A stretch of DNA of 64,000 nt from Candidatus Omnitrophota bacterium (GTDB lineage Bacteria > Omnitrophota > Gorgyraeia > JAHJTE01), in the NCBI GenBank assembly GCA_018830005.1, contig JAHJTE010000001.1, forward strand, positions 257,332 through 321,331. The letters are read 5' to 3'. Within the stretch, counting starts at the first letter, position 1, and each line of letters opens with the position of its first letter. Position numbers and translations under genes: made by a program. Below the pieces are notes generated by a model. It was not told the origin of the DNA and did no database searches. It saw nothing but the letters and a program-made list of their open reading frames with translations. This document shows positions 9,093 through 46,654 of the stretch, in pieces.

Positions 9093-9101
9093 GAACTAGA
9101 G

Positions 9102-18065: not shown

Positions 18066-19209
18066 AAGCATAGCTCGTAATATAAAGAAACTCTATTATA
18101 TAGTTTTGGGCCTTTTTGGCGATATGCTATTTTTCTTAATGCGTATTTTAAGGATAATTTCTAAGCCGAAACCTTTTTTGTCTGAAAATATTAAGAGAAT
18201 TTTAGTAATTCGTCTAGATCGAATTGGAGATGTGGCTTTAACTACCCCGGCACTCAGGGCCTTACGTGAAAGTTTTACTCATGCAAAAATTTATCTTTTG
18301 ACACGTTCCTATGCTAAGGATTTAGTCGTAGGAAACACTGATATTGATGAGCTTTTAATTTTTGATGATAAGACGTCATTTTTTATTGAGATAATGAAAA
18401 AGGCAAAGGTCTTGAAAGGTAAAAAATTTGATTTGGCCATAGTCCTAAACCCTAATTTTTGGTCAAATTTTCTTAGTTTTGCGGGTGGAGCTATACACAG
18501 AGTAGGTTATGATGTAGCAGGATCAGGCTTTTTTTTGACGAAGAAAATCCAGGATAGGCGAGCGCAATATCCACGTCATGAAGTCGAAGTAAATCTTGAG
18601 GTAGTAGGTTCGATAGGTGCACATACCAATGATAAGAGTTTGGTAATATCTATAAGCAAAGAGGGGGAAAGTTTTGCTCAAGACTTTTTAAAGAATAATA
18701 ATATAAGTTATGGTGATGCATTAGTTGCCATACATGCAGGCGGCTTTTATCATTATACGCGTTGGCCAGCAGAGAACTTTGCTAAAGTTTGCGATTATCT
18801 AATTGAAAGATATAATGCAAAGCCGATTTTAGTAGGGAGTGCTTCTGAGCGATTTTTGTCAGAAAAAATCGTATCGCTTATGAAGAATCCCCCTATTGTT
18901 GCTGTGGGCAATACTAATCTAACCGGGCTTATTAGTTTGACTAAAAGATGTAAGTTATTTATTGGCAATTCTTCTGGGCCGATGCACATCGCCGCAGCCT
19001 TAAGGATTCCCGTTGTGGGTATTTTTGGAAATATAAGTCCTGTAGATAGCTTCAAGAATTGGGGACCCTGGGGAGAGGGCCACGTGATAGTTAGCAAGAA
19101 CTTAGACTGCACAAATTGCCAACCGGCTGATTGTTTAAGCCTTGATTGTATGCAATTAATAACGGTAGAGGATGTGCTAAAGGCAGTTGAGGAGCAGCTT
19201 GGGAAATAA
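18037..19209 (+). CDS. glycosyltransferase family 9 (heptosyltransferase-like)
   Basis: Contains ILVIRLDRIGDVALTTPALRALRE (the GT9 N-terminal signature) and C-terminal GNSSGPMHIAAAL. The start is uncertain: candidates are ATG 18037, TTG 18025 and ATG 18055, and there is an unusual N-terminal extension of about 50 aa. Confidence 0.75.
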   Translation: MVCSKGMRFRSIARNIKKLYYIVLGLFGDMLFFLMRILRIISKPKPFLSENIKRILVIRLDRIGDVALTTPALRALRESFTHAKIYLLTRSYAKDLVVGNTDIDELLIFDDKTSFFIEIMKKAKVLKGKKFDLAIVLNPNFWSNFLSFAGGAIHRVGYDVAGSGFFLTKKIQDRRAQYPRHEVEVNLEVVGSIGAHTNDKSLVISISKEGESFAQDFLKNNNISYGDALVAIHAGGFYHYTRWPAENFAKVCDYLIERYNAKPILVGSASERFLSEKIVSLMKNPPIVAVGNTNLTGLISLTKRCKLFIGNSSGPMHIAAALRIPVVGIFGNISPVDSFKNWGPWGEGHVIVSKNLDCTNCQPADCLSLDCMQLITVEDVLKAVEEQLGK

Positions 19210-20242
19210 ATTGAAGAAAATCACGGACATAAACAGTATCCTATTAGTAAATCTTGGTGGCATTGGCGATATACTTTTATCCATACCTGCGCTTAGGGCA
19301 CTGCGTGGCTTTTATAAAAAATCCACCATAACATTATTAACAACACCACGCTCTGTGGATTTGATGAAAGATTATCCCTACATAGATAAGATTATCCTTT
19401 TTAATCCAGGATTATGGCAAAAATTAAAACTGGTTTTTATTTTAAGCAGACTTCATTTTGACCTAGCAATAAATATGAGATCCTTAACTTCTTACTTAAG
19501 CAGTCTTAAGATGGCATCTTTATTTTTATTAGCTGGTGCAACTTACCGTGTTGGCCGAGATACCAATGCAAGGGGTTTCTTCTTAAATGAAAAAATTCCA
19601 GAGGACGATATTGCACAAATGCACGATATAGATTATTATTTCGAAATATTCAAGGTTTTGGGAGTAGAAGGTGAAGGTAGAAATATAGACTTAAAAGTTA
19701 ATCATGAAGATGCTAAATTTATTGATAGATTTCTGCTAGATAACGATGTTGGCCAAAATGATATTTTGATTGGCATAAATCCGGGTGGTACTTGGCCAAC
19801 GCGGCGTTGGCCAATAGAGAATTTTGTTAAACTAATTGAGTTATTGAGAAAAGAAAAAGACTTTAAAATAATAATTACCGGAGGCAAAAAAGAGCTAGAT
19901 TTGGCAATAAAATTAGTGAGCCTATCTAAGGTTGGTATCATTAATGCCACTAATAAGACGAATGTTGGCCAGCTTATGGCATTAATTAAAAGATGCAATG
20001 TCTTTATTTCCAATGACGCTGGCCCGATGCATTTAGCTGCTGCCTTAGCTACTCCTTTAATTGCTTTGTTTGGCCCCGGGGATATTACTCGCTATGACCC
20101 GCGTCGAATATCAGAAAAGGCAGTTGTATTTTATAATAAAGTCGATTGTGCGCCTTGTTTTAAGGTTAGATGCAGTTCTATGAATTGTTTTTCATCCCTG
20201 AGGCCTGAGGAAATATCTAAGGCGGCTTTAAAATTAGTATGA
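19187..20242 (+). CDS. glycosyltransferase family 9 (heptosyltransferase-like), tandem paralog
   Basis: Contains ILLVNLGGIGDILLSIPALRALR and C-terminal SNDAGPMHLAAAL. There is no in-frame ATG before the conserved motif, so a TTG start is required (19187, 19199 or 19211). Confidence 0.75.
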   Translation: MRSSLGNKLKKITDINSILLVNLGGIGDILLSIPALRALRGFYKKSTITLLTTPRSVDLMKDYPYIDKIILFNPGLWQKLKLVFILSRLHFDLAINMRSLTSYLSSLKMASLFLLAGATYRVGRDTNARGFFLNEKIPEDDIAQMHDIDYYFEIFKVLGVEGEGRNIDLKVNHEDAKFIDRFLLDNDVGQNDILIGINPGGTWPTRRWPIENFVKLIELLRKEKDFKIIITGGKKELDLAIKLVSLSKVGIINATNKTNVGQLMALIKRCNVFISNDAGPMHLAAALATPLIALFGPGDITRYDPRRISEKAVVFYNKVDCAPCFKVRCSSMNCFSSLRPEEISKAALKLV

Positions 20243-20457: not shown

Positions 20458-21606
20458 TTGATTGTGAAATCATTACTTGTTACTTTTGATTTTCCCCCTA
20501 TAGTCAGTGGAATTGGCACTGTTTTTTATAATATCTGGAGGCTAATGTCTCCAGAAAATAACTTTATTTTAGCCCCCAAGGTAAAAGGGTATAAAATAAT
20601 AGACAGTAGCAGCGGATTGAGTATATTCCGTTACTTTAGTTTTTGTCGCTCTGCTTTTTTGAGAGCAGTCATTTTATTTTTTTATACCTTTTGGATAGTT
20701 CGAAAAAAAAGGATAGATATTATAGTTTGTGGCGTTCCTGTCAGCATAGGTTTAATCGGATTAGTATTTAAAAAGATAGCCAGATTACCTTATTGCGTAT
20801 TTTATTATGGTGGAGAATTAGAGAAATATAAAAGACGCAAAATCATTTTAAGGCTATTAGAGAGGGTCCTTAAGAACGCTTGTTTTGTCATTGTCAATAG
20901 CGAGTTTACGAGTAAAGAAGTGAAGAAATTTGGCATAGAGGAAGATAAAGTTATAAAGGTTACGCCTGGTGTAGATGTGCAGATTTTTAAGCCAGATTTG
21001 GATTGTTCTGATTTAAAAAAGCGTTTAGGCCTTGAGAACAAAAAAGTATTATTAACTGTATCGCGCTTGGTAGAACGCAAAGGGATTGATGTGGTTATTA
21101 AGGCGTTAGCGAGGCTTAGTGAGAAATTTCCTAGTTTAGTATATTTAATTGTAGGCAGTGGCGAACAAGAGGGTTATCTTAAAGCCCTTGTTGAGAAAAA
21201 TTCACTGAACAAGAACGTTATCTTTATCGGTAAGGTTACGAATGAAGACCTGCCAAAATATTATAATCTTTGCGATATTTACGTTATGCCCAATAGGAAG
21301 ACCCTTGGTGAAGAGATTATAGAAGGTTTTGGTATTTCTTTTATTGAGGCTTCGGCATGCGCTAAGCCTGTTATTGGTGGTAATTCCGGAGGCGCAGGAG
21401 AAGCTGTTTGGGATAAGCGTACTGGGTTTTTAATTGACTCTGAAGATATAGATGCACTTGTGCAAAGTATTACTTGTTTATTAGAGGATGAGAAGCAAGC
21501 GGGTGAACTGGGTAATACTGGGCGCAGATTGATGCAAGAAGAGTTCAGGTGGCAATATCGCGCAGATAGCCTCAAAAAGATATTAAGCTGTTGTCTTCAA
21601 AAATAG
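20458..21606 (+). CDS. glycosyltransferase GT4
   Basis: Contains EGFGISFIEASACAKPVIGG. Paralog of the CDS at 12411; TTG start with no Shine-Dalgarno sequence. Confidence 0.8.
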   Translation: MIVKSLLVTFDFPPIVSGIGTVFYNIWRLMSPENNFILAPKVKGYKIIDSSSGLSIFRYFSFCRSAFLRAVILFFYTFWIVRKKRIDIIVCGVPVSIGLIGLVFKKIARLPYCVFYYGGELEKYKRRKIILRLLERVLKNACFVIVNSEFTSKEVKKFGIEEDKVIKVTPGVDVQIFKPDLDCSDLKKRLGLENKKVLLTVSRLVERKGIDVVIKALARLSEKFPSLVYLIVGSGEQEGYLKALVEKNSLNKNVIFIGKVTNEDLPKYYNLCDIYVMPNRKTLGEEIIEGFGISFIEASACAKPVIGGNSGGAGEAVWDKRTGFLIDSEDIDALVQSITCLLEDEKQAGELGNTGRRLMQEEFRWQYRADSLKKILSCCLQK

Positions 21607-21629: not shown

Positions 21630-22295
21630 ATGAGTATATTAAGCCGTATATATGAGAAGCTTAGATTTTTAATTGCGCGTAAAGGCGAAAAAGGAGAGTA
21701 TTCTTCAGGATATCTGCCTTCTAAGGTAAGGGATGAATTCTTAAGCATATGTAAGAGGAAATCAGGTAGGATCCTAGAGATTGGTTGCGGCGAGGGACTG
21801 TTTATTATAAATTTATTAAAGAAAGCTAAGGGATTGAAGATATTTGGCGTTGATATTTTACGAGAAGGCCTACTAAATGCCAAAGAGAAATTAAAGGCCC
21901 AAGATGCTAAAGCAGTAAACTTAATTGAATCTAACGGTAACGAGCTTTGTTTTAAGGATAACACCTTTGATTATGTAGTATGTTTAAATACGCTTTTTAA
22001 TTTGCCTTCTTTTGAAAATGTAAAAGGAATTATTGCTGAATCTGTGCGCGTGGCTAAAAAAGGCGCAGAGATTATAGTAGATATTAGAAATAAGAATGAT
22101 CTAGTTACGTCTTTACGTTATAGATTTGTTAAGCTTTATGATTCAAAATGCGCTGTAGCGTTAAGACAATATGACCCACAAGAGATTATTGAAATTTTTG
22201 AGCAAAATAACGCCGAGGTTCTAGAGGTTTTACCTATTAGAGCTTTTTTTAACTTAACTGTCCCTATAACAATTATTAAGGCCAAGAAAAGATAA
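21630..22295 (+). CDS. class I SAM-dependent methyltransferase
   Basis: Motif I LEIGCGEGLF and acidic loop GVDIL. The bases 21645-21780 of this gene are copy B of the duplicated fragment. Confidence 0.7.
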   Translation: MSILSRIYEKLRFLIARKGEKGEYSSGYLPSKVRDEFLSICKRKSGRILEIGCGEGLFIINLLKKAKGLKIFGVDILREGLLNAKEKLKAQDAKAVNLIESNGNELCFKDNTFDYVVCLNTLFNLPSFENVKGIIAESVRVAKKGAEIIVDIRNKNDLVTSLRYRFVKLYDSKCAVALRQYDPQEIIEIFEQNNAEVLEVLPIRAFFNLTVPITIIKAKKR

Positions 22296-23482
22296 TGATT
22301 TTAAAAAAAGTTCCTATAGTTGCTACAGACTTTAATATCCCTGATATCTTTTCAGTCTTTAGGGGTTTTAAGGCCAAGGAAAGATTCGAGAAAGAATTAG
22401 CCGCCTCTCTAGGTTTAAAATATGTTTTTACTGTTGATTCTGGCACTAGCGCTTTTTATCTTATATTAAAGGCGCTATCTTCAACTTATCCGGATAAAAA
22501 AGAAGTTGTTTTGCCTGCCTATACTGCTGCCTCATTGGTTTTACCTATAAAAAGATTGGGCTTAAAAATAGTTCTCTGTGATATTTCCTTGGATACTTTT
22601 AACCTAGATATAGAAGGTCTTAATAATTTGATCTCAAAAAATACTCTCTGTGTAACTGTAGTGCATCTATTTGGCTTGGTCTTTGATTTAGAGGCTTTTA
22701 GTAGTATTATCAAACGAAAAGGGATAGATACTATTATCGTTGAAGATTGCGCTCAAGCTTTAGGCTCTTTCATAAACAAACGATCTGTTGGTTCTGGAAG
22801 CGATGTGAGCCTTTTTAGTTTTAATCGAGGTAAAAATATGTCTACTGCTTCGGGTGGTGCAATAGGCGCAAATGATGATAGGTTGGCCGATTTGATTAGA
22901 AAAGAGATAAACATCTTAAGGGGCCCGTCAATTTTTAATAAGTTTATGATTATTGTAAAACTTATTTTGCTTTCTTTGGTTGTAAGGCCACTTATATATA
23001 ATTGTCTTTATCACGTATTAAAGACCTTTAGAAGCACAAAGACACCTATGGATTTTTCTGTCTCAAATTATACAGATGTACAATCTAGGGTCGGATTATC
23101 TTTATTAAAGAGATTGCATCTTTTTAGTAAAGCAAGACATTCAAACGGCTCGTTTCTTTATGATTTATTAAGTAATAAGCAGGATCTTATTATTCCTCAT
23201 ATTCTTAATCTCAGCATACCAGCCTATAATCGTTTTCCTGTTATATTCAGAGATATCCAGGTAAAAAAGAGGATTAGGACAATTCTTTCTGAAGCAGGCA
23301 TAGATAGTTCAGAGATGTATGAGCAGCCTTTGCATTTTAAATTCAATCTCGGATATAAAAAAGGAGATTTCCCTAATGCAGAATTTATTGCTGAAAGGCT
23401 TCTTACGTTGCCGAGCCATCCTTTAGTAAATAAGGCTATGTTGAATTTAATGCGGAAAATTTTTGATGAAAATTTGCAATGA
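22295..23482 (+). CDS. DegT/DnrJ/EryC1/StrS-family PLP-dependent sugar aminotransferase
   Basis: Contains SFNRGKNMSTASGGAI (the family's S-F-H-x-x-K-x-l-x-x-G-E-GG-A Schiff-base lysine region) and DCAQALGS. TAATG stop/start overlap with the upstream methyltransferase. Confidence 0.8.
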   Translation: MILKKVPIVATDFNIPDIFSVFRGFKAKERFEKELAASLGLKYVFTVDSGTSAFYLILKALSSTYPDKKEVVLPAYTAASLVLPIKRLGLKIVLCDISLDTFNLDIEGLNNLISKNTLCVTVVHLFGLVFDLEAFSSIIKRKGIDTIIVEDCAQALGSFINKRSVGSGSDVSLFSFNRGKNMSTASGGAIGANDDRLADLIRKEINILRGPSIFNKFMIIVKLILLSLVVRPLIYNCLYHVLKTFRSTKTPMDFSVSNYTDVQSRVGLSLLKRLHLFSKARHSNGSFLYDLLSNKQDLIIPHILNLSIPAYNRFPVIFRDIQVKKRIRTILSEAGIDSSEMYEQPLHFKFNLGYKKGDFPNAEFIAERLLTLPSHPLVNKAMLNLMRKIFDENLQ

Positions 23483-24642
23483 GTCTGATTAAAAGCTTAA
23501 AAAGAAAGATTTATAAGGCTGCCAGAGAGCCGGCTTACGCCTTGGCTGTTTTAATAAAGAGATTCGCCTCCTTATTTAGTTATTATGTTTTTCAAGGTAG
23601 AAGCAGTTGGCCCGAGACGGTTTCTTTGTTTTTGACTTACCGTTGCAATTTGGCTTGTTCGATGTGCGGCTATTGGGGAAAGTGCGGCTCTTTGAAAGAT
23701 AAAAAGGAGGATTGCCTTAGAGAAGATTTGAATCTTCAAGATTTAGAAAAGATTATCGATGATATAGCAGGCCTTGCGCCGAATATTACTCTTTTTGGCG
23801 GAGAACCGTTTCTCTATCCAGACTGGCCGGTGCTTGTAAAATATATAAAAAATAAAGGATTGCGTTGTAATGTCGTTACTAATGGTACGCTCCTTGCCGC
23901 AAGAGAGCAGGAGGTAATCGATTCTGGTCTTGATGAAATTATTTTTTCCTTAGAGGGCACACAGGAAATTCATGATAAGATTACCAATACCTTAGGTTCA
24001 TTTGATAAGGCCTTTAATGCACTTAGTAAGATTGCAAAGTTAAAGAAAATGAATAATCTGAGGTTACCCAAGATTAATGTTGCCACTACAATTTCGGAAG
24101 ATAATTTCTCTAATCTTTATGAAATATTTAAGACAGCAGAAAAACTCTCACCCGATACTATAACCTTTCATCATCTCTCTTTTGTGGATAGAGAAAGCGT
24201 TGCCAAAACCAATCGGATACTTAAAGATAATTTTGGCATACTAAGCCGAGATTGGGAAGGTTTCATCAGGAATGAACTGCCAAAGATTGATACCGCTGTC
24301 TTAATTGAAGAGATTAAAAAGATAGAGAGTTACCCGAAGGCTTGCGGTGTGTTTTTCTACCCTGATTTTAGACAAAAAGAAATAATAGAATACTACAAAG
24401 ATTTTAATTTTAAATCAAAACAATTTGCCAATCGTTGCTTAAGTCCCTGGATGACTGTTTACATATTCCCTGATGGAAAGGTGGGCCCTTGCGAGGAGTT
24501 GAATATTTATTTTGGCAATATAAAGAAAGAAAGTTTTAAGGACATTTGGAATAATCAGCAGTTTTGCAAATTCAGAAAGATTTTAAAGAGAGAGAGAATT
24601 TTTCCAGTTTGTACTCGCTGTACTGAGTTGTATCGATTCTGA
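23479..24642 (+). CDS. radical SAM protein with C-terminal Cys-rich SPASM/twitch-like auxiliary-cluster domain
   Basis: Radical-SAM cluster motif C-N-L-A-C-S-M-C (C-x3-C-x2-C) with a following GGEP motif. The C-terminal region carries additional cysteines (C..PW...C at about 321, C at about 340, C-x2-C-x5+ in FPVCTRCTELY). Confidence 0.75.
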   Translation: MSLIKSLKRKIYKAAREPAYALAVLIKRFASLFSYYVFQGRSSWPETVSLFLTYRCNLACSMCGYWGKCGSLKDKKEDCLREDLNLQDLEKIIDDIAGLAPNITLFGGEPFLYPDWPVLVKYIKNKGLRCNVVTNGTLLAAREQEVIDSGLDEIIFSLEGTQEIHDKITNTLGSFDKAFNALSKIAKLKKMNNLRLPKINVATTISEDNFSNLYEIFKTAEKLSPDTITFHHLSFVDRESVAKTNRILKDNFGILSRDWEGFIRNELPKIDTAVLIEEIKKIESYPKACGVFFYPDFRQKEIIEYYKDFNFKSKQFANRCLSPWMTVYIFPDGKVGPCEELNIYFGNIKKESFKDIWNNQQFCKFRKILKRERIFPVCTRCTELYRF

Positions 24643-24644
24643 AG

Positions 24645-25811
24645 ATGAAGAAAATAAAAATTATCCACATCATTACCCGCTTGGACAGGGGCGGTTCTTC
24701 AAGGATAGTACTGGATATTACAAAGTCCTTAAATAAGGATGATTTTAGTCAAAAGATTATCAGTGGGTTGACTAAAGATCCGGAGCAGGATTTGAATGAA
24801 TTTAGTAAACAGAGCGGGGTTCAAATTATATTCCTAGATTGCCTACGCAGAGATATTAATATCTTTTTAGATTTTTTTAGCTTGTTTAAATTGTATCGGT
24901 TGATTAAGAGAGAAAAGCCAGACATTATTCATACCCATACTTCCAAGGCAGGTTTTTTGGGTCGCTTAGCAGCAAGGATGGCTAAGGTAGAGGTTATTAT
25001 TTATATGCCACACGGCAATATTTTTTATGGCTACGCCGGAGCGTTATTATCTAGATTATTCGAAATACTTGAGCGATTTTGTGCTAATTTTACCGATATA
25101 ATCGTTACGCTTACTGATATTGGAAAGAAAGAGTTTCTTTCTAGGGGCATTGGGGGGCAAGAAAAGTTTGTCACGATTCATAATGGAATAGATTTTAAAG
25201 AATATGAACAAATTAATCTTAGAAGAGTAGAACAGTTAAAACAGGAGTTTAAGATAGCGAAAGATTGTGCTGTAGTCACTACTGTATCCAGGCTTGAGTC
25301 AGTTAAGGGGATAGAATTTTTTATTAAGGCTTTAAAACAGTTGGATAAAACCGGTGCTAATTTTAAGGCATTAATAGTGGGGGAAGGTTCCCTAAAGACT
25401 AAATTAGTAAAGTTTGCTAGGGTATTAGATTTGGAAGACAAAATTATTTTTTTAGGTTTCAGAGAAGATATAAAAGAGATTATTGCTTTATCTGATTGCG
25501 TAGTGAATCCAGCCTTAAATGAGGGCTTTGGCTTGGTTATTTTAGAGGCGTTTGCCTTAGCTAAGCCAGTCATCGCTACCCGGGTAGGAGGGGTGAGGGA
25601 GATTGTGGAAGATAATAATACAGGTATCCTTGTTCAGCCAGCAAATCCCGATGAGCTGACAGAGGCAATTGTCGAGGTTTTACAAAATAAAGAGAAGACA
25701 AAAGCATTAACATCTCAGGCGAAAACTAAATTAGAAAAAGAGTTTACAAAAGAAAAAATGTTAGCAAGCTTTAGAGACCTATACTTAAATCTTGCAAAGG
25801 GTAAAAAATAG
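24645..25811 (+). CDS. glycosyltransferase GT4
   Basis: Contains EGFGLVILEAFALAKPVIATRVGG, the classic GT4 motif. Confidence 0.85.
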   Translation: MKKIKIIHIITRLDRGGSSRIVLDITKSLNKDDFSQKIISGLTKDPEQDLNEFSKQSGVQIIFLDCLRRDINIFLDFFSLFKLYRLIKREKPDIIHTHTSKAGFLGRLAARMAKVEVIIYMPHGNIFYGYAGALLSRLFEILERFCANFTDIIVTLTDIGKKEFLSRGIGGQEKFVTIHNGIDFKEYEQINLRRVEQLKQEFKIAKDCAVVTTVSRLESVKGIEFFIKALKQLDKTGANFKALIVGEGSLKTKLVKFARVLDLEDKIIFLGFREDIKEIIALSDCVVNPALNEGFGLVILEAFALAKPVIATRVGGVREIVEDNNTGILVQPANPDELTEAIVEVLQNKEKTKALTSQAKTKLEKEFTKEKMLASFRDLYLNLAKGKK

Positions 25812-26501
25812 ATGATTATTTCAGTGCATCAACCACAATATTTACCCTGGTTAGGGTTTTTTGATAAGATTGACAGAAGCGATTGCTTTGTATTTTTAGA
25901 TAATGTCCAATATAAAAAACGCGAATTCCAAAACAGAAACAAAATCCGTACCAAAGATAGCTGGATATGGTTGACCGTACCCGTAATTACCAAAGGTTTA
26001 TATACTCAAAAGATTAACGAGGTAGAAATTGACAATGACCTTGATTGGTCTAATGATCATCTAAAAAGCATTAAATTTAACTATAGCCGTGCCCAGTTTT
26101 TTAAAGTTTATTTTGAATTTTTCCAAAAGCTCTATTCAAAGAAATGGCAAAGATTAGCTGATTTGAATGTGTTCATAATAAAGGAGATGCTTCTTTCTCT
26201 GGGAATCAGAAAAGATATTTATTTTGAGTCAGAGTTAGGTATAATCTCTGAAAAGTCTTGCCGGATAATAGATATCTGCAAAAGATTGAATGCTGATACA
26301 TATTTTTCTGGTGAGGGCGGCAGGGATTACCTTGATGAAAAACAATTTGAAAAGAATTCTATCAAATTAGTTTATCAGGATTTTGCGCATCCAGAATATG
26401 GGCAGTGCTATGGTTCATTCGTCAGCAATATGTCAATAATTGACCTTTTATTTAATCAGGGAAAAAATTCCTTGGAGATTTTAAGAGGCAAATTAGTTTA
26501 A
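25812..26501 (+). CDS. WbqC-like family protein
   Basis: Begins MIISVHQPQYLPWLGFFDKI, the hallmark N-terminus of the WbqC family (IHQPNYLPWLGYF); 229 aa; the ATG immediately follows the upstream stop. Confidence 0.75.
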   Translation: MIISVHQPQYLPWLGFFDKIDRSDCFVFLDNVQYKKREFQNRNKIRTKDSWIWLTVPVITKGLYTQKINEVEIDNDLDWSNDHLKSIKFNYSRAQFFKVYFEFFQKLYSKKWQRLADLNVFIIKEMLLSLGIRKDIYFESELGIISEKSCRIIDICKRLNADTYFSGEGGRDYLDEKQFEKNSIKLVYQDFAHPEYGQCYGSFVSNMSIIDLLFNQGKNSLEILRGKLV

Positions 26502-26504
26502 GCT

Positions 26505-27069
26505 ATGAATCGAGTAAAAAAGACAATATCCAATGTTGTATTGATTCTTGGTTCATTTTTATTTGTCCTGTTTATACTTGAGGCTGGCGTAAGGATATTT
26601 ATTCCGGTTGTAAAGCCTGCGATGATTGTAAAAAAGGCCTCGCCGAAAAATCTGGAGAAACCCTTAGCATTTCTAGAGTCGTTCTTTGAAGGGACCTTTT
26701 TGCGCAAAGGCTTAGTCCGATTTAGGCAGGGACAGAACTGTCTGGAATTAGAGAGGTTGGGATATTACAAAAGAGGAACTCAAGAAAATAAATACCCTTG
26801 CTAAAGGCACCGACGTATCTTTTGTAGTAATACGTATACATTTTTTGTATGATGTTTATAATCGCGGCGAAGATCAAGTGAGTAAAATTTTAGCTGAATT
26901 TGCTAAAAAGAATAACATTAACGTATGTGATCTATTAACAGCTCTCAGAGAGAACAGGGGCAGCGATTTATATTATCCGGCAGATGGACACTGGAAGCCT
27001 CTGGCTCATAAATTGGCAGCGGAAGGGATTTATAATTACTTAGTTGATAAGAGCTTATTAAATAAATAA
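26505..27069 (+). pseudogene. SGNH/GDSL-like hydrolase paralog, internally deleted
   Basis: The 99-aa N-terminal piece (TM segment plus VRFRQGQ) and the 74-aa C-terminal piece (LYYPADGHWKP) align to the two ends of the intact 351-aa paralog at 28717-29772 (LGFRGQE and IDEIHMSPKG), but they lie in different frames and the central catalytic region of about 180 aa is absent. Confidence 0.55.
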
Positions 27070-27083
27070 AGAGGTATTAGATT

Positions 27084-27758
27084 ATGTGTGATACTGCTGG
27101 TATTATTTTTGGAGTTAAAAATTTCTCTAAAGAAGAAATTGAAGGAAAGAGGATAATTGAGGTTGGTTCTTTTGATGAGAATGGAAGTTTGCGCCCTTTC
27201 ATTGAGTCGCTTAATCCTCGTGAATATATAGGAATAGACATTAAGGAAGGTCCGGGTGTAGACATGATTTGTAGCGTAGAGGAGATGGTAGAAAAATTTG
27301 GACGCGAGAGCTTTGACATTATTATTTCTACAGAGCTTTTAGAGCACGTAAGAGACTACAAGAGAGGTATTGCAAACATTAAAAATATCTGTAAACTAGG
27401 TGGCACAGTATTCATAACTACCCGTTCCTATGGTTTCCTTTATCATGGTTTCCCTAGTGATTACTGGAGATTTGAAGCCTCTGACCTGGAGTACATATTT
27501 TCAGATTGTCTTATTGAAAAAATTGAAAAGGATAAATACTCCCCGGGAGTTTTTATTAAGGTTAGAAAACCAAAAGACTTTAAGGAGAACGATTTAGCTA
27601 GTTTAGAACTATATTCCATTATTTTAGATAAAAGGACAAAAGAAATAAAACCTAAAGATATAAATATTTTTCAGAAGAGGAAAAATAGAAATCAGCGTGT
27701 TAAAAAAATAATAAATGATATAGGAAAATTATTTTATAGGATAGTAGAGAGATTTTAG
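27084..27758 (+). CDS. SAM-dependent methyltransferase (Methyltransf_11-like)
   Basis: Contains IEVGSFDENG and DIIISTELLEHV motifs; 224 aa. Confidence 0.6.
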   Translation: MCDTAGIIFGVKNFSKEEIEGKRIIEVGSFDENGSLRPFIESLNPREYIGIDIKEGPGVDMICSVEEMVEKFGRESFDIIISTELLEHVRDYKRGIANIKNICKLGGTVFITTRSYGFLYHGFPSDYWRFEASDLEYIFSDCLIEKIEKDKYSPGVFIKVRKPKDFKENDLASLELYSIILDKRTKEIKPKDINIFQKRKNRNQRVKKIINDIGKLFYRIVERF

Positions 27759-27848
27759 TCAATCCTTTTAAAATTAATCCAAGGCCGCAGTAGAGATTAA
27801 AAATTATTTTATGCAGATAGTTCCTTTGCAGCTAAATAAGAATCGACA

Positions 27849-28720
27849 ATGAAATCAAGATTATTAATTTACTTCAAGAGATCAGCTTTATTATTTATCG
27901 CTTTCAGTACAGTTGTTGCAATTTTATTCTTTATCTTTATCGCACCGCATAGAACCTTACCAATTTTAATGTACCATTCTATTTCAGCCGTTGAAGAGAA
28001 AAATAATCTGAGCCTGCCAAAGAATATTTTTGATAAGCAGATGCAATATTTGTCGAAAAATAATTATAAAATAATTTCTTTAAGCGAAGCTGCTAATTTG
28101 ATTAAACAAGGCTCGAGTATTCCAAATAATTTGTTGGTGTTAAACTTTGATGATGGCTATAGAGATTTCTATGGTCGGGCCTATACCATACTTAAAAAAT
28201 ATCAATTTAAGGCAACGGTTTTTGTAATTATTGATTCTCTCGGAGAAAAAAATAATCTAAGCTGGGAACAGGCGCAGGATTTAGCAAAAGACGATTTAAT
28301 AGATATTGGCGCCCATTCCTTAAGCCACAGAATTTTGCCTTTATTATCCCGCGAAGAAGCCAGGAAAGAAATTTTTCTTTCAAAATTGATTTTAGAGACA
28401 AGATTAAACAAAACTATAGAATCTTTTTGTTATCCTTATGGTGTGCTAGATGATTCCATAAAAGAGTTGGTTAAGGAGGCTGGTTTTGACCCGCTGTAGG
28501 TACTGCTTATCAGAAGGAGGAGTTTAAAGACGATGATATCTACACATTAAAAAGGGTATTTGTTTCCAAATTTTCTAAGTACCCACTTGTTTTTAGATTT
28601 ATGATTTCTGGTTATTATGTTCCTATAAGAGGATTCCTCCTAAGGCTATTAAATATAAAAACTCCGCGCGATTTTTACGCTGCAAAAAGACAAAAATCTT
28701 ATTTACTGATACAGAAATGA
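27849..28720 (+). pseudogene. polysaccharide deacetylase (NodB/CE4) with a -1 frameshift near 28496 (or an assembly error)
   Basis: The track ORF stops at 28499 after AGFDPL. The -1 frame continues as VGTAYQKEEFKDDDIYTLKRVFVSKFSKYPLVFRFMISGYY..., which aligns with the C-terminus of the paralog at 1040-2083 (NRHDEDIFLLKRLFIAEDNLAQFVYKISG). It ends with TGA at 28718-28720, forming an ATGA overlap with the next gene's ATG at 28717. Motifs LNFDDGYRDFY and IGAHSLSHRIL are present. Confidence 0.7.
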
Positions 28721-29772
28721 AAAGATTTACCAGTAGAAAAAAAGCCCTTTCGTATATATTAATAATCTTGTTATTTTTTCTTGTAGCAGAGGTAATGTTA
28801 CGCATACGCGAAAGAGTTAAAGCAAAAGAGACCCAGGTTTATGGACAAATTAATTTTTTTTCGTCCCATCCTTTTCTTAATTATGTGCTGAATCCAAAGA
28901 TAGCGAAGCATAATTCATTAGGTTTTAGGGGTCAAGAGATAGATATTTCTAAAGAGGAAAATATTTATAGAATATTTTGCCTAGGTGCATCTAGTGTCTA
29001 TGGTTCAAGGGTTTCCCCGGAAGAGTCCTATCCTTATTTTCTTAATCAGCTTCTAAAGAATACCGTTAAAAAGAAAGTACCCGATGTGATTAACGCCGGC
29101 GTGCCGGGATACACATCAGCTAATATTTTTTTATTATTTCAATTTCGCATTCTTCCTCTATCACCTGATATGATAATAATTTATTCTGGATTTAACGACA
29201 TATTTCCCAGGATTATGGGTAAGGGTGCCTTTGATTATTCAGATTTTAATATTGTTTGGAGGCCGATACCAGCTTTAAAAAGGGCTCTATTTAAAAGTAT
29301 ATTAGCTCAAAAGATTATTGGCCGAGTGGGAGAAAGATTAGGGATTGCTTTTTTAACCTGGCCGCCGCATATTCATGAAATTGTTCAGAAATGGCCATAT
29401 CAATATGTTACTGGTGATTATAAAAGGAATTTAGCGAATACGTCTGCGCAGATTTTCCAACGAAATATTTTGTCCTTGATTCAGCTTGCCAGGGCTAATG
29501 ATGTCGATGTTGTTTTAGTGGCTCAAGTTTTAGGTCCTGTAAAAGAGAGCAAATCAATATATGCTGAATTGGCTAAAGGAATTATGGAACATAACAATGT
29601 TATTCGTAATTTAACCCGCCAGACTGGTGTTTATTTAATAGATTTAGAAAGCATATTTCCAAGGCGTTCGGAGATGTTTATCGATGAAATCCATATGAGT
29701 CCAAAGGGAAATAAAATACGCGCTGAAATTATTTCAGAAACTATAGCAAAAATTATACAAGAGGATAATTAG
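28717..29772 (+). CDS. SGNH/GDSL-like hydrolase family protein, N-terminal membrane anchor
   Basis: Contains N-terminal GASSVYG (a GDS-like block I Ser), GFNDI, and a C-terminal D-x-x-H catalytic dyad (IDEIHMSP); 351 aa. Confidence 0.55.
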   Translation: MKRFTSRKKALSYILIILLFFLVAEVMLRIRERVKAKETQVYGQINFFSSHPFLNYVLNPKIAKHNSLGFRGQEIDISKEENIYRIFCLGASSVYGSRVSPEESYPYFLNQLLKNTVKKKVPDVINAGVPGYTSANIFLLFQFRILPLSPDMIIIYSGFNDIFPRIMGKGAFDYSDFNIVWRPIPALKRALFKSILAQKIIGRVGERLGIAFLTWPPHIHEIVQKWPYQYVTGDYKRNLANTSAQIFQRNILSLIQLARANDVDVVLVAQVLGPVKESKSIYAELAKGIMEHNNVIRNLTRQTGVYLIDLESIFPRRSEMFIDEIHMSPKGNKIRAEIISETIAKIIQEDN

Positions 29773-29836: not shown

Positions 29837-30451
29837 ATGAACATATTGGCAATCGGTGCGCATCCGGATGATATTGAATTTGGCTGCGGTGGGACATTAT
29901 TGAAATATACTAAGGCCAAAAATAATGTTTATCTTTTAATTTTAACTAAAGGAGAAATCGGAGCCTCTGGCGCTAGGCGATGTCAAGAGCAGAAAGAATC
30001 CGCTAAATTCTTAAAAGCAAAACGCGTTTTTTGGGGGAATTATAAGGACACTAAAATATGTTTAACCAAAGAGTTGATTGGAAAGATCGAGGCAATATTG
30101 AATAAGGTTAAGCCAGAGATTGTCTTATTTAATGCTCCTTCTGATATCCATCAAGATCACAGGGTGGTTGCAGAGGCCGCTATTTCAGCTACAAGATATA
30201 TAAAGAAGGTCTTATTTTATGAGGTCCCGACTACTATTGGCTTTGAGCCGGATATATTTGTTGATATTGGTGATATTATCTTTGAAAAACTCCAACTCCT
30301 AAAGTTGCATCGTTCTCAAGTGCATAAGACAAGAGTCCCAGGCTTAAGTATAATGGATAGTGCGACCTCTTGTGCAAATTTCAGGGGTTTTCAGGGGCGA
30401 GTGAAGTATGCTGAGGGATTCAAGGCCTTAAGGTTTATGTTAGAGTCATGA
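29837..30451 (+). CDS. PIG-L/LmbE-family N-acetylglucosaminyl deacetylase
   Basis: Begins MNILAIGAHPDDIEFGCGGTL (the AHPDDE zinc-binding signature), with later HQDH. Confidence 0.8.
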   Translation: MNILAIGAHPDDIEFGCGGTLLKYTKAKNNVYLLILTKGEIGASGARRCQEQKESAKFLKAKRVFWGNYKDTKICLTKELIGKIEAILNKVKPEIVLFNAPSDIHQDHRVVAEAAISATRYIKKVLFYEVPTTIGFEPDIFVDIGDIIFEKLQLLKLHRSQVHKTRVPGLSIMDSATSCANFRGFQGRVKYAEGFKALRFMLES

Positions 30452-32585: not shown

Positions 32586-32629
32586 TTAAGGCAACTGTTG
32601 TTAACTCACTTTTCGGTTAGTTAGCATGA

Positions 32630-32660
32630 TGCCCGCTTTTTTATCCAAAAAAAGCGGGCA
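32630..32660 (+). terminator. stable hairpin GCCCGC-U6-AUCC-A7-GCGGGC, possible terminator
   Basis: Perfect inverted repeat tgcccgctttttt / aaaaaagcgggca. The U-tract lies inside rather than after the stem, so its function is uncertain. Confidence 0.45.
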
Positions 32661-32702
32661 TACTGTTATTTGCAAAGATGGGTACAGATAAAATACCACA
32701 AA

Positions 32703-46600: not shown

Positions 46601-46654
46601 TATTTACACAGATACTTACTTATATCTGTGTTGAAAAGAAAGGAAGGAAAAAGT

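Follow-up and report, generated by a model that had tools for sequence, protein, structure and literature searches.

A candidate radical-SAM and DegT aminotransferase route to amino sugars within an envelope glycan cassette conserved among uncultured anaerobic bacteria

The locus considered here raises the question of where a DegT-family aminotransferase obtains its keto sugar when its neighbours include no gene for an SDR, epimerase or dehydratase. A preliminary description of the 64-kb stretch of DNA analysed here (the window) had singled out four genes at positions 22295-26501 and proposed that a radical-SAM enzyme (rSAM) supplies the ketone by a BtrN-like oxidation. In the reading that we favour, tentatively and at somewhat less than even probability, the rSAM creates a sugar carbonyl, the aminotransferase aminates it and a methyltransferase methylates the product, the three forming the core of an envelope glycan cassette with two sub-modules. 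If this is true, amino sugars may be made in these bacteria without the usual NAD-dependent enzymes.

Gene content and conservation of the cassette

The four genes were recovered by the ORF check at exactly the coordinates given earlier, and Pfam assigns them, as had been described, to a DegT aminotransferase (hereafter DegT1), a radical-SAM enzyme that carries a cysteine domain at its C-terminus, a GT4 glycosyltransferase and a WbqC-family protein (Table 1). The DegT1 stop and rSAM start share a 4-nt ATGA overlap, confirming the coupling noted previously, while the gaps between rSAM and GT4 and between GT4 and WbqC measure 2 and 0 nt. A methyltransferase overlaps the DegT1 start as TAATG, and the block consequently begins one gene earlier than first reported.

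Table 1. Features of the window in and around the glycan cassette
Feature	Coordinates	Strand	Evidence
GT9 (heptosyltransferase-family) glycosyltransferase, first of pair	18025..19209	+	PF01075, 1.3e-33
Second GT9 glycosyltransferase	19187..20242	+	PF01075, 4.5e-34
GT4 glycosyltransferase between GT9 pair and methyltransferase	20458..21606	+	PF00534, 5.7e-45
Class I SAM methyltransferase, 221 aa	21630..22295	+	PF13649/PF08241
DegT1, DegT-family PLP aminotransferase	22295..23482	+	DegT_DnrJ_EryC1 PF01041, E 1.8e-53
Radical-SAM enzyme, 387 aa	23479..24642	+	PF04055 1e-18; SPASM PF13186 4e-16
GT4, BshA/MshA-like	24645..25811	+	PF00534, 1.4e-42; PF13439
WbqC-family protein	25812..26501	+	PF08889, 1e-79
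Probable frameshifted GDSL/SGNH hydrolase remnant	26505..27070	+	ORF reading
Insert: methyltransferase, polysaccharide deacetylase, GDSL hydrolase	27084..29772	+	Pfam; between WbqC and PIG-L
PIG-L/LmbE-family de-N-acetylase	29837..30451	+	PF02585, 3e-26
WecA/MraY-family polyprenyl-phosphate sugar-1-phosphate transferase	30448..31503	+	PF00953, 5e-37
Intrinsic-terminator-like hairpin, strong	32629..32661	+	14-bp stem, 6 GC pairs, T-rich tail
Gfo/Idh/MocA oxidoreductase, overlaps lpxB	35599..36531	-	PF01408, 9e-28

The block is the centre of a larger cell-envelope glycan cassette, conserved among uncultured anaerobic bacterial phyla, that occupies approximately 18.0-31.5 kb of the window, part of a Candidatus Omnitrophica genome (GT9, GT9, GT4, methyltransferase, DegT1, rSAM, GT4, WbqC, an insert, PIG-L and a WecA-like gene). 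Orthologues of the rSAM were found in 177 GTDB species genomes, and 80 loci from at least ten phyla were retrieved. The order GT9-GT9-methyltransferase-DegT-rSAM-GT4-(PHP)-WbqC-PIG-L-(second DegT, DegT2)-WecA-like recurs in at least ten phyla of uncultured bacteria, its portion from the methyltransferase onward being found in Omnitrophota, Nitrospirota, Latescibacterota, Elusimicrobia, Poribacteria, KSB1, Firestonebacteria, Planctomycetota and others. As this order is repeated in dozens of loci across at least ten phyla, the arrangement is not due to chance. The GT9 pair precedes methyltransferase-DegT-rSAM in many loci of many phyla (homologues of the second GT9 in 19 of 81 rSAM-seeded loci, median identity 34%), and the GT4 that follows the pair is found at the equivalent place in the closest relative (L003). 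PIG-L and the WecA-like gene, which is the last of the cassette, are likewise conserved members, 25 of 81 loci having a homologue of the former (about 50% identity) and 20 of 81 one of the latter (about 44%). The probable hydrolase remnant (an ORF of 99 aa whose N-terminus holds a TM segment, then out-of-frame SGNH-like C-terminal sequence) is window-specific filler outside the conserved cassette; the insert is lineage-specific, with only its polysaccharide deacetylase recurring elsewhere (13 loci). The hairpin, which has a convergent partner at 32728-32699, closes the co-directional glycan gene array.

The tightly packed genes, earlier treated as a single four-gene block, fall into two sub-modules, methyltransferase-DegT-rSAM and GT4-WbqC(-PIG-L), and the methyltransferase had been overlooked. 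The first of these is the most constant unit of the cassette, and in some Planctomycetota loci it stands alone, without GT4 or WbqC downstream. The methyltransferase belongs to a protein cluster (cluster 3) found in 45 loci and is the constant partner of the DegT1 type, lying upstream in 58 of the 62 DegT1-seeded loci whose DNA extends far enough on that side. The pairing of DegT with rSAM, for which phylogenetic profiling had been proposed, is strongly conserved: this rSAM follows DegT1 in at least 41 of the 53 DegT1-seeded loci with enough downstream DNA, and in one apparent exception (L134) it sits 10 kb further along, after an inserted gene cluster. Seeded from the rSAM, roughly 50 of 82 loci have a DegT1-type aminotransferase within 6 kb. 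About 25 of the 82 orthologues, with approximately 43-45% identity, have no DegT within 10 kb, their contexts being a polysaccharide-export locus in Marinimicrobia and a housekeeping/RiPP-like region in Thermodesulfobacteriota.

The aminotransferase and the radical-SAM enzyme

No NCBIfam equivalog reaches its cut-off for DegT1, rSAM or WbqC, and none of the three has a characterised member. The catalytic lysine (K180, aligned with the lysine of 7b0d) and D151 of DegT1 are conserved in the family alignment. The protein also carries an atypical hydrophobic insertion of about 44 aa at approximately residues 214-260 (between query residues 217 and 261 in the alignment), where the 19-aa Kyte-Doolittle maximum reaches 2.22 at residue 226. 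Every equivalog model, with DesI among the matches, falls far below its cut-off, and WbpE is matched at only 7e-22. By sequence comparison, DegT1 constitutes a divergent subfamily with its own insert rather than a GnnB/WbpE orthologue, and the insert suggests work at the membrane. Of the methyltransferase, no specific solved relative was found.

The rSAM bears the motifs C56xxxC60xM62C63 and GGEP (107-110), followed by an auxiliary domain of the form C320-X12-G-X4-C338...C378-X2-C381. Given that this C-terminal motif stops after CX2C, before a second SPASM cluster, the enzyme is of the twitch type as defined in PMC6231123, with one auxiliary cluster rather than a full SPASM domain, which settles a classification that the preliminary description had left to be made. 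M62 and the three-cysteine auxiliary site are invariant in the family. In 31 of 82 orthologues (approximately 38%), some of them in DegT1-type cassettes, Tyr or Phe takes the place of the fourth auxiliary cysteine, C338, whose loss suggests an open coordination site as opposed to a fully ligated electron-acceptor cluster of the BtrN/anSME type.

On the reading that we favour, this twitch-type enzyme would take hydrogen from a sugar to yield a carbonyl, either by two-electron dehydrogenation of a hydroxyl (as in BtrN, or DesII with hydroxy substrates) or by a radical dehydration of a 1,2-diol that leaves a deoxy-keto sugar (as in BlsE/AprD4). PLP-dependent DegT1 would transaminate that carbonyl, and the methyltransferase would methylate the amine so formed or a group next to it; the first sub-module would then need neither an NAD-dependent SDR nor a Gfo-type enzyme. 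In the second, the GT4 would add GlcNAc, PIG-L would deacetylate it and WbqC would re-acylate the free amine. From the presence of the WecA-like gene and the GT9 pair, the glycan concerned would be polyprenyl-phosphate-linked or of the LPS-core type. Against this reading stand the rSAM loci devoid of DegT, the variability of C338, a BtrN likeness limited to the twitch domain, a UDP-GlcNAc 3-dehydrogenase-like gene at 35.6 kb, the occurrence of DegT2 without a dehydratase, and the RiPP maturases SuiB, SkfB and CteB, which score equally with sugar enzymes against the rSAM by fold and by profile.

Keto-sugar supply and competing readings

The reported absence of SDR, epimerase and dehydratase genes holds for the entire window (64 kb of an 848-kb contig), where no such Pfam family occurs among the ORFs of 150 aa or more and phmmer queries with GalE and RmlB returned no match. 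SDR-like ORFs are nearly absent from some 160 related loci as well, with one weak GalE-like match among 2,385 ORFs (82 loci and the window) and two RmlB-like matches in 80 further loci. This absence needs one qualification, since the Gfo/Idh/MocA gene, 9 kb downstream of the end of the block and outside the 32-kb array, matches the UDP-GlcNAc 3-dehydrogenase model NF040723 at 4.3e-70 (237 bits, below the 450 cut-off). Its product resembles the GnnA/WbpB type, a conventional kind of keto-sugar-forming enzyme, and could serve as a conventional keto-sugar source.

It is accordingly possible, if on balance doubtful, that DegT1 aminates a keto sugar from an NAD-dependent enzyme encoded elsewhere (this dehydrogenase-like protein or an unlinked 4,6-dehydratase), and that the rSAM performs some other tailoring of the same sugar, for instance by epimerising it, deoxygenating another carbon or forming a C-C or C-S bond. 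DegT2, present in many cassettes, is canonical (275 bits to the PseC model) and lacks a dehydratase nearby, so it is evidently usual in these genomes for keto sugars to come from unlinked genes, and the argument from a missing dehydratase loses weight. The DegT-less rSAM loci and the open auxiliary site, unlike that of BtrN, point the same way, and similarity among SPASM/twitch proteins is no predictor of chemistry (PMC6231123). However, the Gfo-type gene stands outside the cassette, on the other strand in a lipid A cluster, and no cassette-linked homologue occurs in the other loci surveyed. Moreover, the fact that DegT1 and rSAM almost always adjoin and overlap across phyla argues for consecutive steps, and the divergence of DegT1 from WbpE, together with its own insert, counts against this reading.

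The two steps may also run in the opposite order, with DegT1 making an amino sugar that the rSAM deaminates to a deoxy-keto sugar, the pair being a deoxygenation device. DesI and DesII of desosamine biosynthesis are an established pairing of this kind, DesI is among the DegT1 matches, and the best structural matches of the rSAM include DesII (E 1.6e-13, TM 0.62). We nevertheless consider this order unlikely: its starting material would be a 4-keto-6-deoxy sugar made by an RmlB-type SDR, effectively absent from the related loci; the DesII profile match reaches only 6e-4; the rSAM family has its invariant three-cysteine site, whereas DesII is not known to have an auxiliary-cluster domain; and the ever-present methyltransferase is easier to explain if the amine survives.

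The second sub-module bears on a further alternative. Its GT4 is, by sequence, most like BshA and MshA, retaining enzymes that use UDP-GlcNAc (BshA NCBIfam model 1e-40, below cut-off; best solved relatives BshA, 2jjm and 5d00, at 1e-29, and MshA at 2e-18). The best NCBIfam match of PIG-L is BshB1 (1e-29), and the WecA-like protein matches the WecA model at 2e-33, both below cut-off. WbqC has more than 7,900 homologues, and its AF2 model (pLDDT 92) found no significant PDB match by Foldseek (no E-value of 1e-3 or lower; TM approximately 0.37); the weak top matches, TyrRS, PanC and NMNAT, hint at a resemblance to HUP-class nucleotide-binding ligases. A GT4-WbqC-lmbE triad is also reported from unrelated operons, the actinobacterial tRNA-ProX operons, where a ProRS paralogue and a tRNA of its own accompany it (PMC10404621). 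GlcNAc addition, de-acetylation and re-acylation by GT4, PIG-L and WbqC are the probable course of this sub-module. With MshA/MshB/MshC-like logic, the first sub-module could instead build a non-sugar acyl or amino-acid-like substituent that WbqC, as a ligase, attaches to the GlcN amine uncovered by GT4 and PIG-L; the weak fold matches of WbqC are to class I aaRS and PanC-type adenylate-forming folds, and DegT-fold enzymes able to use non-nucleotide keto substrates (AHBA synthase, NtdA, Kdo8N transaminase) are in the DegT1 match list. This strikes us as improbable, the WbqC fold matches being non-significant, characterised DegT-family substrates being almost all sugars or cyclitols, and some loci (L021, L022 and L026) keeping methyltransferase-DegT1-rSAM with WbqC and GT4 missing downstream.

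It is very improbable that the rSAM matures peptides or proteins, as a RiPP sactisynthase-like or anSME-like enzyme, and sits in a glycan locus by chance: although anSME joins SkfB, CteB and SuiB among its top sequence and fold matches, its best NCBIfam match is a tungsten-enzyme maturase (110 bits against a cut-off of 380) and some loci hold a SynChlorMet-like RiPP cluster beside or within the cassette, all curated maturase models fall far below their cut-offs, the AF2 model (pLDDT 87) has only two N-terminal helices (residues 2-37) and no RRE domain, the overlapping genes leave no room for a precursor peptide, no sulfatase occurs in the window, those RiPP clusters have their own full-SPASM rSAM (approximately 25% identity), and the polysaccharide context is conserved in at least ten phyla.

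Comparison with known systems

The pairing of a radical-SAM enzyme with a DegT-type aminotransferase has more precedents than BtrN/BtrS, which had been put forward as the only well-characterised case, for DesI/DesII and BlsE/BlsH are also known. The proposed likeness to BtrN holds for one domain: BtrN is the best solved match to the twitch domain (profile E 1.9e-9), but the match is confined to residues 315-382. The rSAM is not a member of the BtrN family, being longer (387 aa against approximately 250), and in core and fold it lies closer to SkfB, CteB, BlsE and DesII. The fourth cysteine of the auxiliary cluster, which is fully ligated in BtrN, is frequently missing from the rSAM family. BlsE and DesII are sugar-acting radical-SAM enzymes. 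In overall geometry the best match is BlsE (TM 0.65/0.76, rmsd 3.5 A) and the next is DesII. BlsE has in common with the rSAM family both GGEP and the unusual methionine of CxxxCxMC, and it is reported to form a keto sugar by radical dehydration of a 1,2-diol.

Gene order in the window and in related genomes

Every gene in the first ~32.3 kb of the window lies on the plus strand, in one long glycan-biosynthesis array that includes a Wzy-like protein, two flippases, GT2, GT4 and GT9 glycosyltransferases, methyltransferases, deacetylases and a B12-radical-SAM enzyme. A promoter scan gave scores no better than those of shuffled sequence. Within this array, the preliminary description had singled out a DegT-family aminotransferase gene (DegT1), a radical-SAM gene (rSAM) translationally coupled to it, a GT4 glycosyltransferase gene and a gene for a WbqC-like protein. 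This observation is confirmed and extended here: the four ORFs encode the families named, the rSAM start and the DegT1 stop share the sequence ATGA, and DegT1 is itself overlapped, as TAATG, by an upstream methyltransferase gene (MT). The gap between rSAM and GT4 is 2 nt, and that between GT4 and WbqC is 0 nt.

Features of the window discussed in the text
Feature	Position	Strand	Remarks
Wzx/MurJ-type flippase	2109-3581	+	
NTP-transferase, MFS transporter, CDP-alcohol phosphatidyltransferase	7028-9818	+	trio inside the array
B12-binding radical-SAM enzyme	10694-12406	+	
Wzx/MurJ-type flippase	16611-18065	+	
MT	21630-22295	+	methyltransferase, 221 aa
DegT1	22295-23482	+	first ORF of the block; 395 aa; PF01041, 1.8e-53
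rSAM	23479-24642	+	second ORF; 387 aa; PF04055, 1e-18; PF13186, 4e-16
GT4	24645-25811	+	third ORF; 388 aa
WbqC	25812-26501	+	fourth ORF; 229 aa; PF08889, 1e-79
Probable GDSL/SGNH pseudogene	26505-27070	+	99-aa ORF, then out-of-frame C-terminal sequence
Paralogue of the probable pseudogene	28717-29772	+	
PIG-L	29837-30451	+	
WecA-like	30448-31503	+	
Terminator	32629-32661		strong; closes the glycan array
lpxB and Gfo/Idh/MocA gene	34463-36531	-	overlapping pair
Gfo/Idh/MocA oxidoreductase	35599-36531	-	overlaps lpxB; lipid A cluster, outside the array
SAM synthetase and SAH hydrolase	46628-49089		adjoining genes

Several other features of the neighbourhood deserve mention. Since two Wzx/MurJ-type flippase genes occur in the one co-directional array, it may encode two different glycans, with the genes considered here in its second half. 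The trio of NTP-transferase, MFS transporter and CDP-alcohol phosphatidyltransferase has its best NCBIfam matches in inositol-1-phosphate cytidylyltransferase/DIPP synthase and archaetidylinositol-phosphate synthase, and may serve to decorate with a phospho-alcohol (inositol-phosphate?) or to build an unusual lipid head group. The B12-binding radical-SAM enzyme resembles BchE, HpnJ and P-methyltransferases, in each case below cut-off; a related Firestonebacteria locus (L165; L numbers denote relatives' loci retrieved with rSAM or DegT1 as seed) is likewise flanked by two B12-radical-SAM genes, and radical chemistry may be used repeatedly in such loci. Some 20 kb downstream of the glycan locus, with its at least six methyltransferases and two radical-SAM enzymes, a SAM synthetase gene adjoins a SAH hydrolase gene; the pair is probably housekeeping and fits a heavy demand for SAM.

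The rSAM family has a near-constant length of 387 aa and ~45% identity across phyla, and carries no specific name in any source. Scanning a single genome for each GTDB species turned up relatives in 177 genomes; the top 80 are MAGs without exception and are drawn from Omnitrophota, anammox Planctomycetota, Nitrospirota/Thermodesulfovibrionia, Thermodesulfobacteriota, Latescibacterota, KSB1, Poribacteria, Elusimicrobia, Marinimicrobia/Fidelibacterota and others. When ORFs were called in 82 rSAM loci and clustered, the order [GT9 GT9] MT-DegT1-rSAM-GT4-(membrane PHP/CehA-like hydrolase)-WbqC-PIG-L-(canonical DegT2)-WecA-like recurred (for example in L008, L023, L025, L029, L035, L053, L060, L062, L068, L071, L073, L164 and L165). 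The PHP gene and DegT2, a second and canonical DegT gene, are missing from the window and from its closest relative, L003, and the window carries a lineage-specific insert between WbqC and PIG-L, comprising a methyltransferase, a deacetylase, a GDSL hydrolase and a GDSL pseudogene remnant. The remnant is probably frameshifted: its ORF encodes a membrane segment at the N-terminus, and an SGNH-hydrolase-like C-terminal sequence (ADGHWKPLAH...) comes after it in another frame. Other variants include a Scalindua cassette with a deacetylase and a carbamoyltransferase between DegT1 and rSAM, a 2.9-Mb Scalinduaceae contig on which MT-DegT1-rSAM-PHP-GT4-WbqC stands alone between glycolysis genes and topA, and loci of some Planctomycetota reduced to MT-DegT1-rSAM (L021, L022, L026).

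A reverse search seeded with DegT1 yielded 80 metagenome loci, with MT upstream in 58 of the 62 informative ones and rSAM downstream in at least 41 of 53; the pairing of DegT1 with rSAM, for which the preliminary description had proposed phylogenetic profiling, is strongly conserved. One apparent exception, L134, has its rSAM 10 kb further on, past an inserted RiPP cluster. This SynChlorMet-like cluster splits the cassette between DegT1 and the 387-aa rSAM in L134/L163 (contig SDBU01000077.1), L083 and L100, and comprises a full-SPASM radical-SAM enzyme (~25% identity), a 53-aa ORF, a ScmC/HPr-kinase-like protein, an S24 peptidase/NTP_transf_5 protein and an ABC exporter. In L163 (14589-18699) and L164 (13432-18684) a Y1 transposase gene comes after the cassette, and beyond it lies a giant ORF (7,685 and 6,964 aa, respectively), whose products could be surface-protein targets of the glycan machinery or mere neighbours. 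In Marinimicrobia/Fidelibacterota (L047, L048, L055, L061, L069 and similar loci), the rSAM orthologue heads a Wza/Wzc/Wzy polysaccharide-export locus, directly following the dcw cluster (murC-ftsQ-ftsA-ftsZ) and a gene for a cNMP-binding/FHA protein; DegT is absent from the surrounding 10 kb, and Tyr occupies position 338 in every one of these orthologues. Neither the cassette nor any of its three core families has been characterised.

Predicted properties of the encoded proteins

Membership of rSAM in the radical SAM superfamily is indicated by its cluster motif, SAM-binding GGE motif, Pfam assignment and predicted fold: none of the 35 sequences aligned departs from C56-X3-C60-X2-C63, M62 or G107-G108-E109-P110, the PF04055 score is 68.6 bits (cut-off 29.5), and Foldseek matches of its AF2 model to radical-SAM structures reach E-values of 7e-15. 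The preliminary description had also noted an extra C-terminal cysteine cluster. This is present as C320-X12-G-X4-C338 ... C378-X2-C381, with the protein ending six residues past C381. A SPASM domain, which holds two auxiliary clusters, is defined by the seven-cysteine motif CX9-15GX4C-gap-CX2CX5CX3C-gap-C (PMC6231123); only its first half occurs here, so that a full SPASM domain was rejected and the region classes, by the definition of the same source, as a twitch domain with one auxiliary cluster. The Pfam SPASM model nevertheless scores 59 bits because it also covers twitch domains, and the N_Twi_rSAM model (NF033640) gives 88 bits, below its cut-off of 170. A twitch domain is a shortened SPASM domain, a beta-hairpin and a helix supplying the ligands of one auxiliary cluster; in the model, strands at 326-329 and 334-336 precede a helix at 360-372. 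C320, C378 and C381 do not vary among the aligned full-length orthologues, apart from one case that may be a misalignment (L079). The window protein keeps all four cysteines; 31 of 82 orthologues, some of them from DegT1-type cassettes, have Tyr or Phe at position 338, so that some members probably have an open auxiliary coordination site of the kind seen in MoaA, SkfB or CteB.

Searched against PDB sequences, the rSAM family profile matched SkfB (1.9e-18), CteB (6e-16), BlsE (6.5e-16), anSME (3e-8) and DesII (6e-4) in its core, and BtrN in its twitch region 315-382 only (1.9e-9). By Foldseek, the model (pLDDT 87) had its best E-values with SuiB and SkfB (~1e-14), then DesII (1.6e-13), and its best geometry with BlsE (7vob; TM 0.65/0.76, rmsd 3.5 A); BtrN was not among the top 50 matches. 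All curated NCBIfam models among the best 25 of 64 matches fell far below cut-off. The N-terminal 37 residues form two conserved, basic, amphipathic helices. Taken together, sequence and model place rSAM among twitch-type enzymes with BlsE and DesII as its nearest sugar-acting relatives, and not as an orthologue of BtrN; the BtrN-like identity first proposed, lacking full-length homology, is not upheld. Likeness within the SPASM/twitch subfamily is no predictor of chemistry (PMC6231123).

DegT1 scores 182.5 bits with PF01041 (cut-off 19.8) and reaches none of the NCBIfam equivalogs (PseC, 123 vs 423.5; DesI, 85 vs 650); it is divergent, its best solved relative being 7b0d (5.6e-28). Its Schiff-base lysine K180 (in SFNRGK) and its pyridine-N aspartate Asp151 align with the Lys and Asp of 7b0d and are invariant in seven family members. 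ColD/E1 dehydratases have His in place of this lysine; DegT1 therefore classes, by its conserved residues, as an aminotransferase-type rather than His-type member of the fold-type I PLP family DegT/DnrJ/EryC1/StrS. A family-specific insertion of ~44 aa (~residues 214-260), strongly hydrophobic in its first half (19-residue Kyte-Doolittle maximum 2.22), is unexpected in a soluble nucleotide-sugar enzyme and hints that DegT1 may act at the membrane. No informative solved relative of MT was found.

The closest characterised relatives of GT4 are BshA (1e-29 to 1e-40) and MshA, and that of PIG-L is BshB1. Membership of a bacillithiol or mycothiol pathway was rejected on scores under the equivalog cut-offs (GT4 vs BshA, 139.9 bits, cut-off 273.7; PIG-L vs BshB, 103.8 bits, cut-off 182.5), and the resemblance would be one of reaction type only, namely GlcNAc transfer followed by de-N-acetylation. 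WbqC matches PF08889 over its full length (267.9 bits, cut-off 21.3) and belongs to a very large family (>7,900 matches), for which no solved relative was found by sequence; our literature search on WbqC, PF08889 and radical-SAM/DegT glycan systems found no functional study. Its confident AF2 model (pLDDT 92) has no significant PDB neighbour, and the weak top matches are class I aaRS, PanC and NMNAT, that is, HUP-class nucleotide-binding folds. In actinobacterial operons, a GT4-WbqC-lmbE triad accompanies a ProRS paralogue and a dedicated tRNA (PMC10404621). A putative role in ligation or acyl transfer on de-acetylated GlcN is a reasonable guess.

Supply of the keto-sugar and the role of the radical-SAM enzyme

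The accepted route to amino sugars of bacterial envelopes is nearly always NAD(P)-dependent oxidation or dehydration by an SDR- or Gfo-type enzyme, with transamination by a DegT enzyme as the next step; to our knowledge, radical-SAM alternatives come only from a few antibiotic pathways (BtrN, BlsE, AprD4, DesII). The lack of any dehydratase in the 32-kb locus had been the original argument for such an alternative here. The absence itself holds: Pfam detected no SDR, epimerase or sugar dehydratase in any ORF of 150 aa or longer across the 64 kb, phmmer queries with GalE and RmlB had no match there, and only three GalE- or RmlB-like ORFs occur across ~160 related loci. In the same loci no Gfo homologue exceeded the thresholds used, with one 43-bit match in 81 loci. 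Non-orthologous displacement of rSAM was rejected, as no NAD-dependent dehydrogenase was found in its place in the DegT1 loci that lack it, and at least one such exception has rSAM further downstream. The weight of the argument is, however, weaker than the preliminary description held.

GnnA/WbpB-type enzymes are the conventional suppliers of DegT aminotransferases, and the Gfo/Idh/MocA gene of the window is of this type, scoring 237 bits (4e-70) against the UDP-GlcNAc 3-dehydrogenase model, below its cut-off of 450. Its overlap with lpxB suggests a lipid A containing GlcN3N. No canonical GnnB-type aminotransferase is visible in the window, and DegT1 is an unlikely partner, being divergent and tied to the cassette, while the Gfo gene is never cassette-linked elsewhere.

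That MT, DegT1 and rSAM overlap or adjoin one another so consistently speaks for successive action on a single substrate. Among the three characterised pairs of DegT-type and radical-SAM enzymes, the radical enzyme makes a carbonyl in two (BtrN/BtrS and BlsE/BlsH), and the RmlB on which the third (DesI/DesII) relies is absent here, which favours a carbonyl-making rSAM. By this analogy we tentatively prefer, at somewhat less than an even chance, a scheme in which rSAM would generate a carbonyl, by dehydrogenation or diol dehydration, that DegT1 would then aminate. The general idea of a radical-SAM/DegT amination unit is plausible and is strengthened by conservation; its specific assignment to BtrN is unsupported.

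The main competitor, which we consider rather unlikely, is a conventional keto-sugar supply from unlinked genes, with rSAM doing something else. The canonical DegT2 genes likewise lack a linked dehydratase, a GnnA-like gene does lie in the window, ~25 of the 82 rSAM orthologues have no DegT context (Marinimicrobia polysaccharide-export loci, Thermodesulfobacteriota regions), and the fourth auxiliary ligand of rSAM is not conserved, all of which speak for such a supply; the cassette-tied character of DegT1 and the position of the GnnA-like gene make that particular source doubtful. We see slim prospects for a DesII-like radical deamination, given its need for an RmlB-type dehydratase, and it is very unlikely, too, that MT-DegT1-rSAM builds a non-sugar substituent for WbqC, the putative ligase. 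A peptide maturase of RiPP or anSME type is highly improbable: the model has no RRE, its N-terminus being two helices only, the overlapping genes leave no room for a precursor ORF and the window contains no sulfatase, so that neither of the neighbours named as refuting in the preliminary description is present, rSAM has one auxiliary site where such maturases have two, none of the curated maturase models listed in the best 25 of 64 NCBIfam matches reaches its cut-off, and the RiPP-like cluster in L083, L100 and L134 has its own, different SPASM enzyme.

The scheme in which rSAM makes the carbonyl for DegT1 can be extended to an NAD-independent route to (N-methyl)amino or amino-deoxy sugars in anaerobic candidate phyla. 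Its substrates would be polyprenyl-diphosphate-linked or LPS-core intermediates, handled at the membrane, to which the hydrophobic insert would anchor DegT1 and the conserved amphipathic N-terminal helices would anchor rSAM; the variable fourth ligand would let the auxiliary cluster bind the sugar directly, and WbqC would be a previously unrecognised HUP-class amide ligase completing an MshABC-like conversion of GlcNAc to GlcN to N-acyl-GlcN on the same glycan. As a whole, this extension is quite unlikely.

If the carbonyl scheme is true, radical-SAM amino-sugar chemistry would extend to primary cell-envelope glycans, in a cassette conserved in Omnitrophota, anammox Planctomycetota, Nitrospirota, Latescibacterota, Elusimicrobia, KSB1 and other phyla. 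For enzymologists, the cassette delimits a unit of three genes, MT-DegT1-rSAM, and one protein family (387 aa, twitch type, CxxxCxMC); the very large, function-less WbqC family gains a concrete setting beside GT4 and PIG-L, in which a ligase role suggests itself. Should the keto-sugar supply be conventional after all, the cassette is still a useful marker of an uncharacterised LPS/O-unit modification in uncultured anaerobes.

Comparison with known systems

The preliminary description had taken BtrN/BtrS to be the only well-characterised partnership of this kind, which is incorrect, as BlsE/BlsH and DesI/DesII are characterised too. BtrN, of the butirosin 2-deoxystreptamine pathway, is a radical-SAM dehydrogenase that oxidises a secondary alcohol by two electrons at the expense of SAM. 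The resemblance to BtrN/BtrS lies in the combination of a one-twitch-cluster radical-SAM enzyme with a DegT/StrS-family aminotransferase; the four cysteines of the window rSAM have the BtrN-like spacing C-X17-C...C-X2-C, BtrN is its best solved twitch-domain match, and BtrM/BtrD parallel the GT4-then-PIG-L deacetylase logic of the cassette. In contrast to BtrN, with which likeness is limited to residues 315-382 by both phmmer and profile, rSAM has 387 aa rather than about 250 (the BtrN chains compared count 269-270 residues), and it possesses two additional helices at the N-terminus as well as an insertion in the middle. The fourth auxiliary cysteine is not conserved in the rSAM family, whereas the auxiliary [4Fe-4S] cluster of BtrN is fully ligated by four Cys (PMC6231123). 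The butirosin pathway also differs in context, an aminocyclitol antibiotic as opposed to a cell-envelope glycan: no DHQ-synthase-like protein (2-deoxy-scyllo-inosose synthase) was found among the window ORFs, and the neighbours are glycosyltransferases, flippases and a WecA-like enzyme.

BlsE of blasticidin S biosynthesis, which along with AprD4 of apramycin biosynthesis is a radical-SAM 1,2-diol dehydratase giving a deoxy-keto sugar, yields a 4'-keto-3'-deoxy sugar that is aminated by the PLP aminotransferase BlsH. BlsE/BlsH therefore resemble the proposal in that a radical-SAM step makes the carbonyl used by the aminotransferase. The Met of the CxxxCxMC motif, in the place of the usual aromatic residue, was called unusual by the BlsE authors (PMC3715490), and the diol dehydration was later reported (JACS 2022). 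This motif and GGEP are common to both proteins, and BlsE is the best geometric fold match, with a core profile E-value of 6.5e-16; these are shared features of sequence and model that do not amount to catalytic membership. Sequence likeness covers only the radical-SAM core (rSAM residues 52-190), and the BlsE substrate is a cytosine nucleoside uronic acid of an antibiotic pathway.

In desosamine biosynthesis, a nucleotide sugar is likewise acted on by a DegT-family enzyme, DesI, together with a radical-SAM enzyme, DesII, whose fold matches strongly and which can also dehydrogenate hydroxy analogues; yet the order is reversed (amination, then radical deamination), an RmlB-type dehydratase is needed that is absent here, and profile similarity is weak. 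GnnA/GnnB and WbpB/WbpE carry out the same net chemistry as proposed, hydroxyl to ketone to amine on a cell-envelope sugar, and a gene of GnnA/WbpB type lies in the window at 35.6 kb; their oxidant, however, is an NAD-dependent Gfo/Idh/MocA dehydrogenase acting on UDP-GlcNAc or UDP-GlcNAcA, and the window gene sits in a lipid A cluster, without linkage to the cassette in other genomes. Lastly, MshA/MshB/MshC and BshA/BshB/BshC share GlcNAc transfer and de-N-acetylation with GT4 and PIG-L, whose nearest characterised relatives they include. WbqC may hold the position of MshC/BshC, which ligate to the freed amine, and the GT4-WbqC-LmbE triad recurs elsewhere, but WbqC is unrelated to these ligases in sequence and its fold match is not significant; moreover, those pathways make a soluble thiol, whereas the product here would be a polyprenyl-linked or LPS-type glycan.
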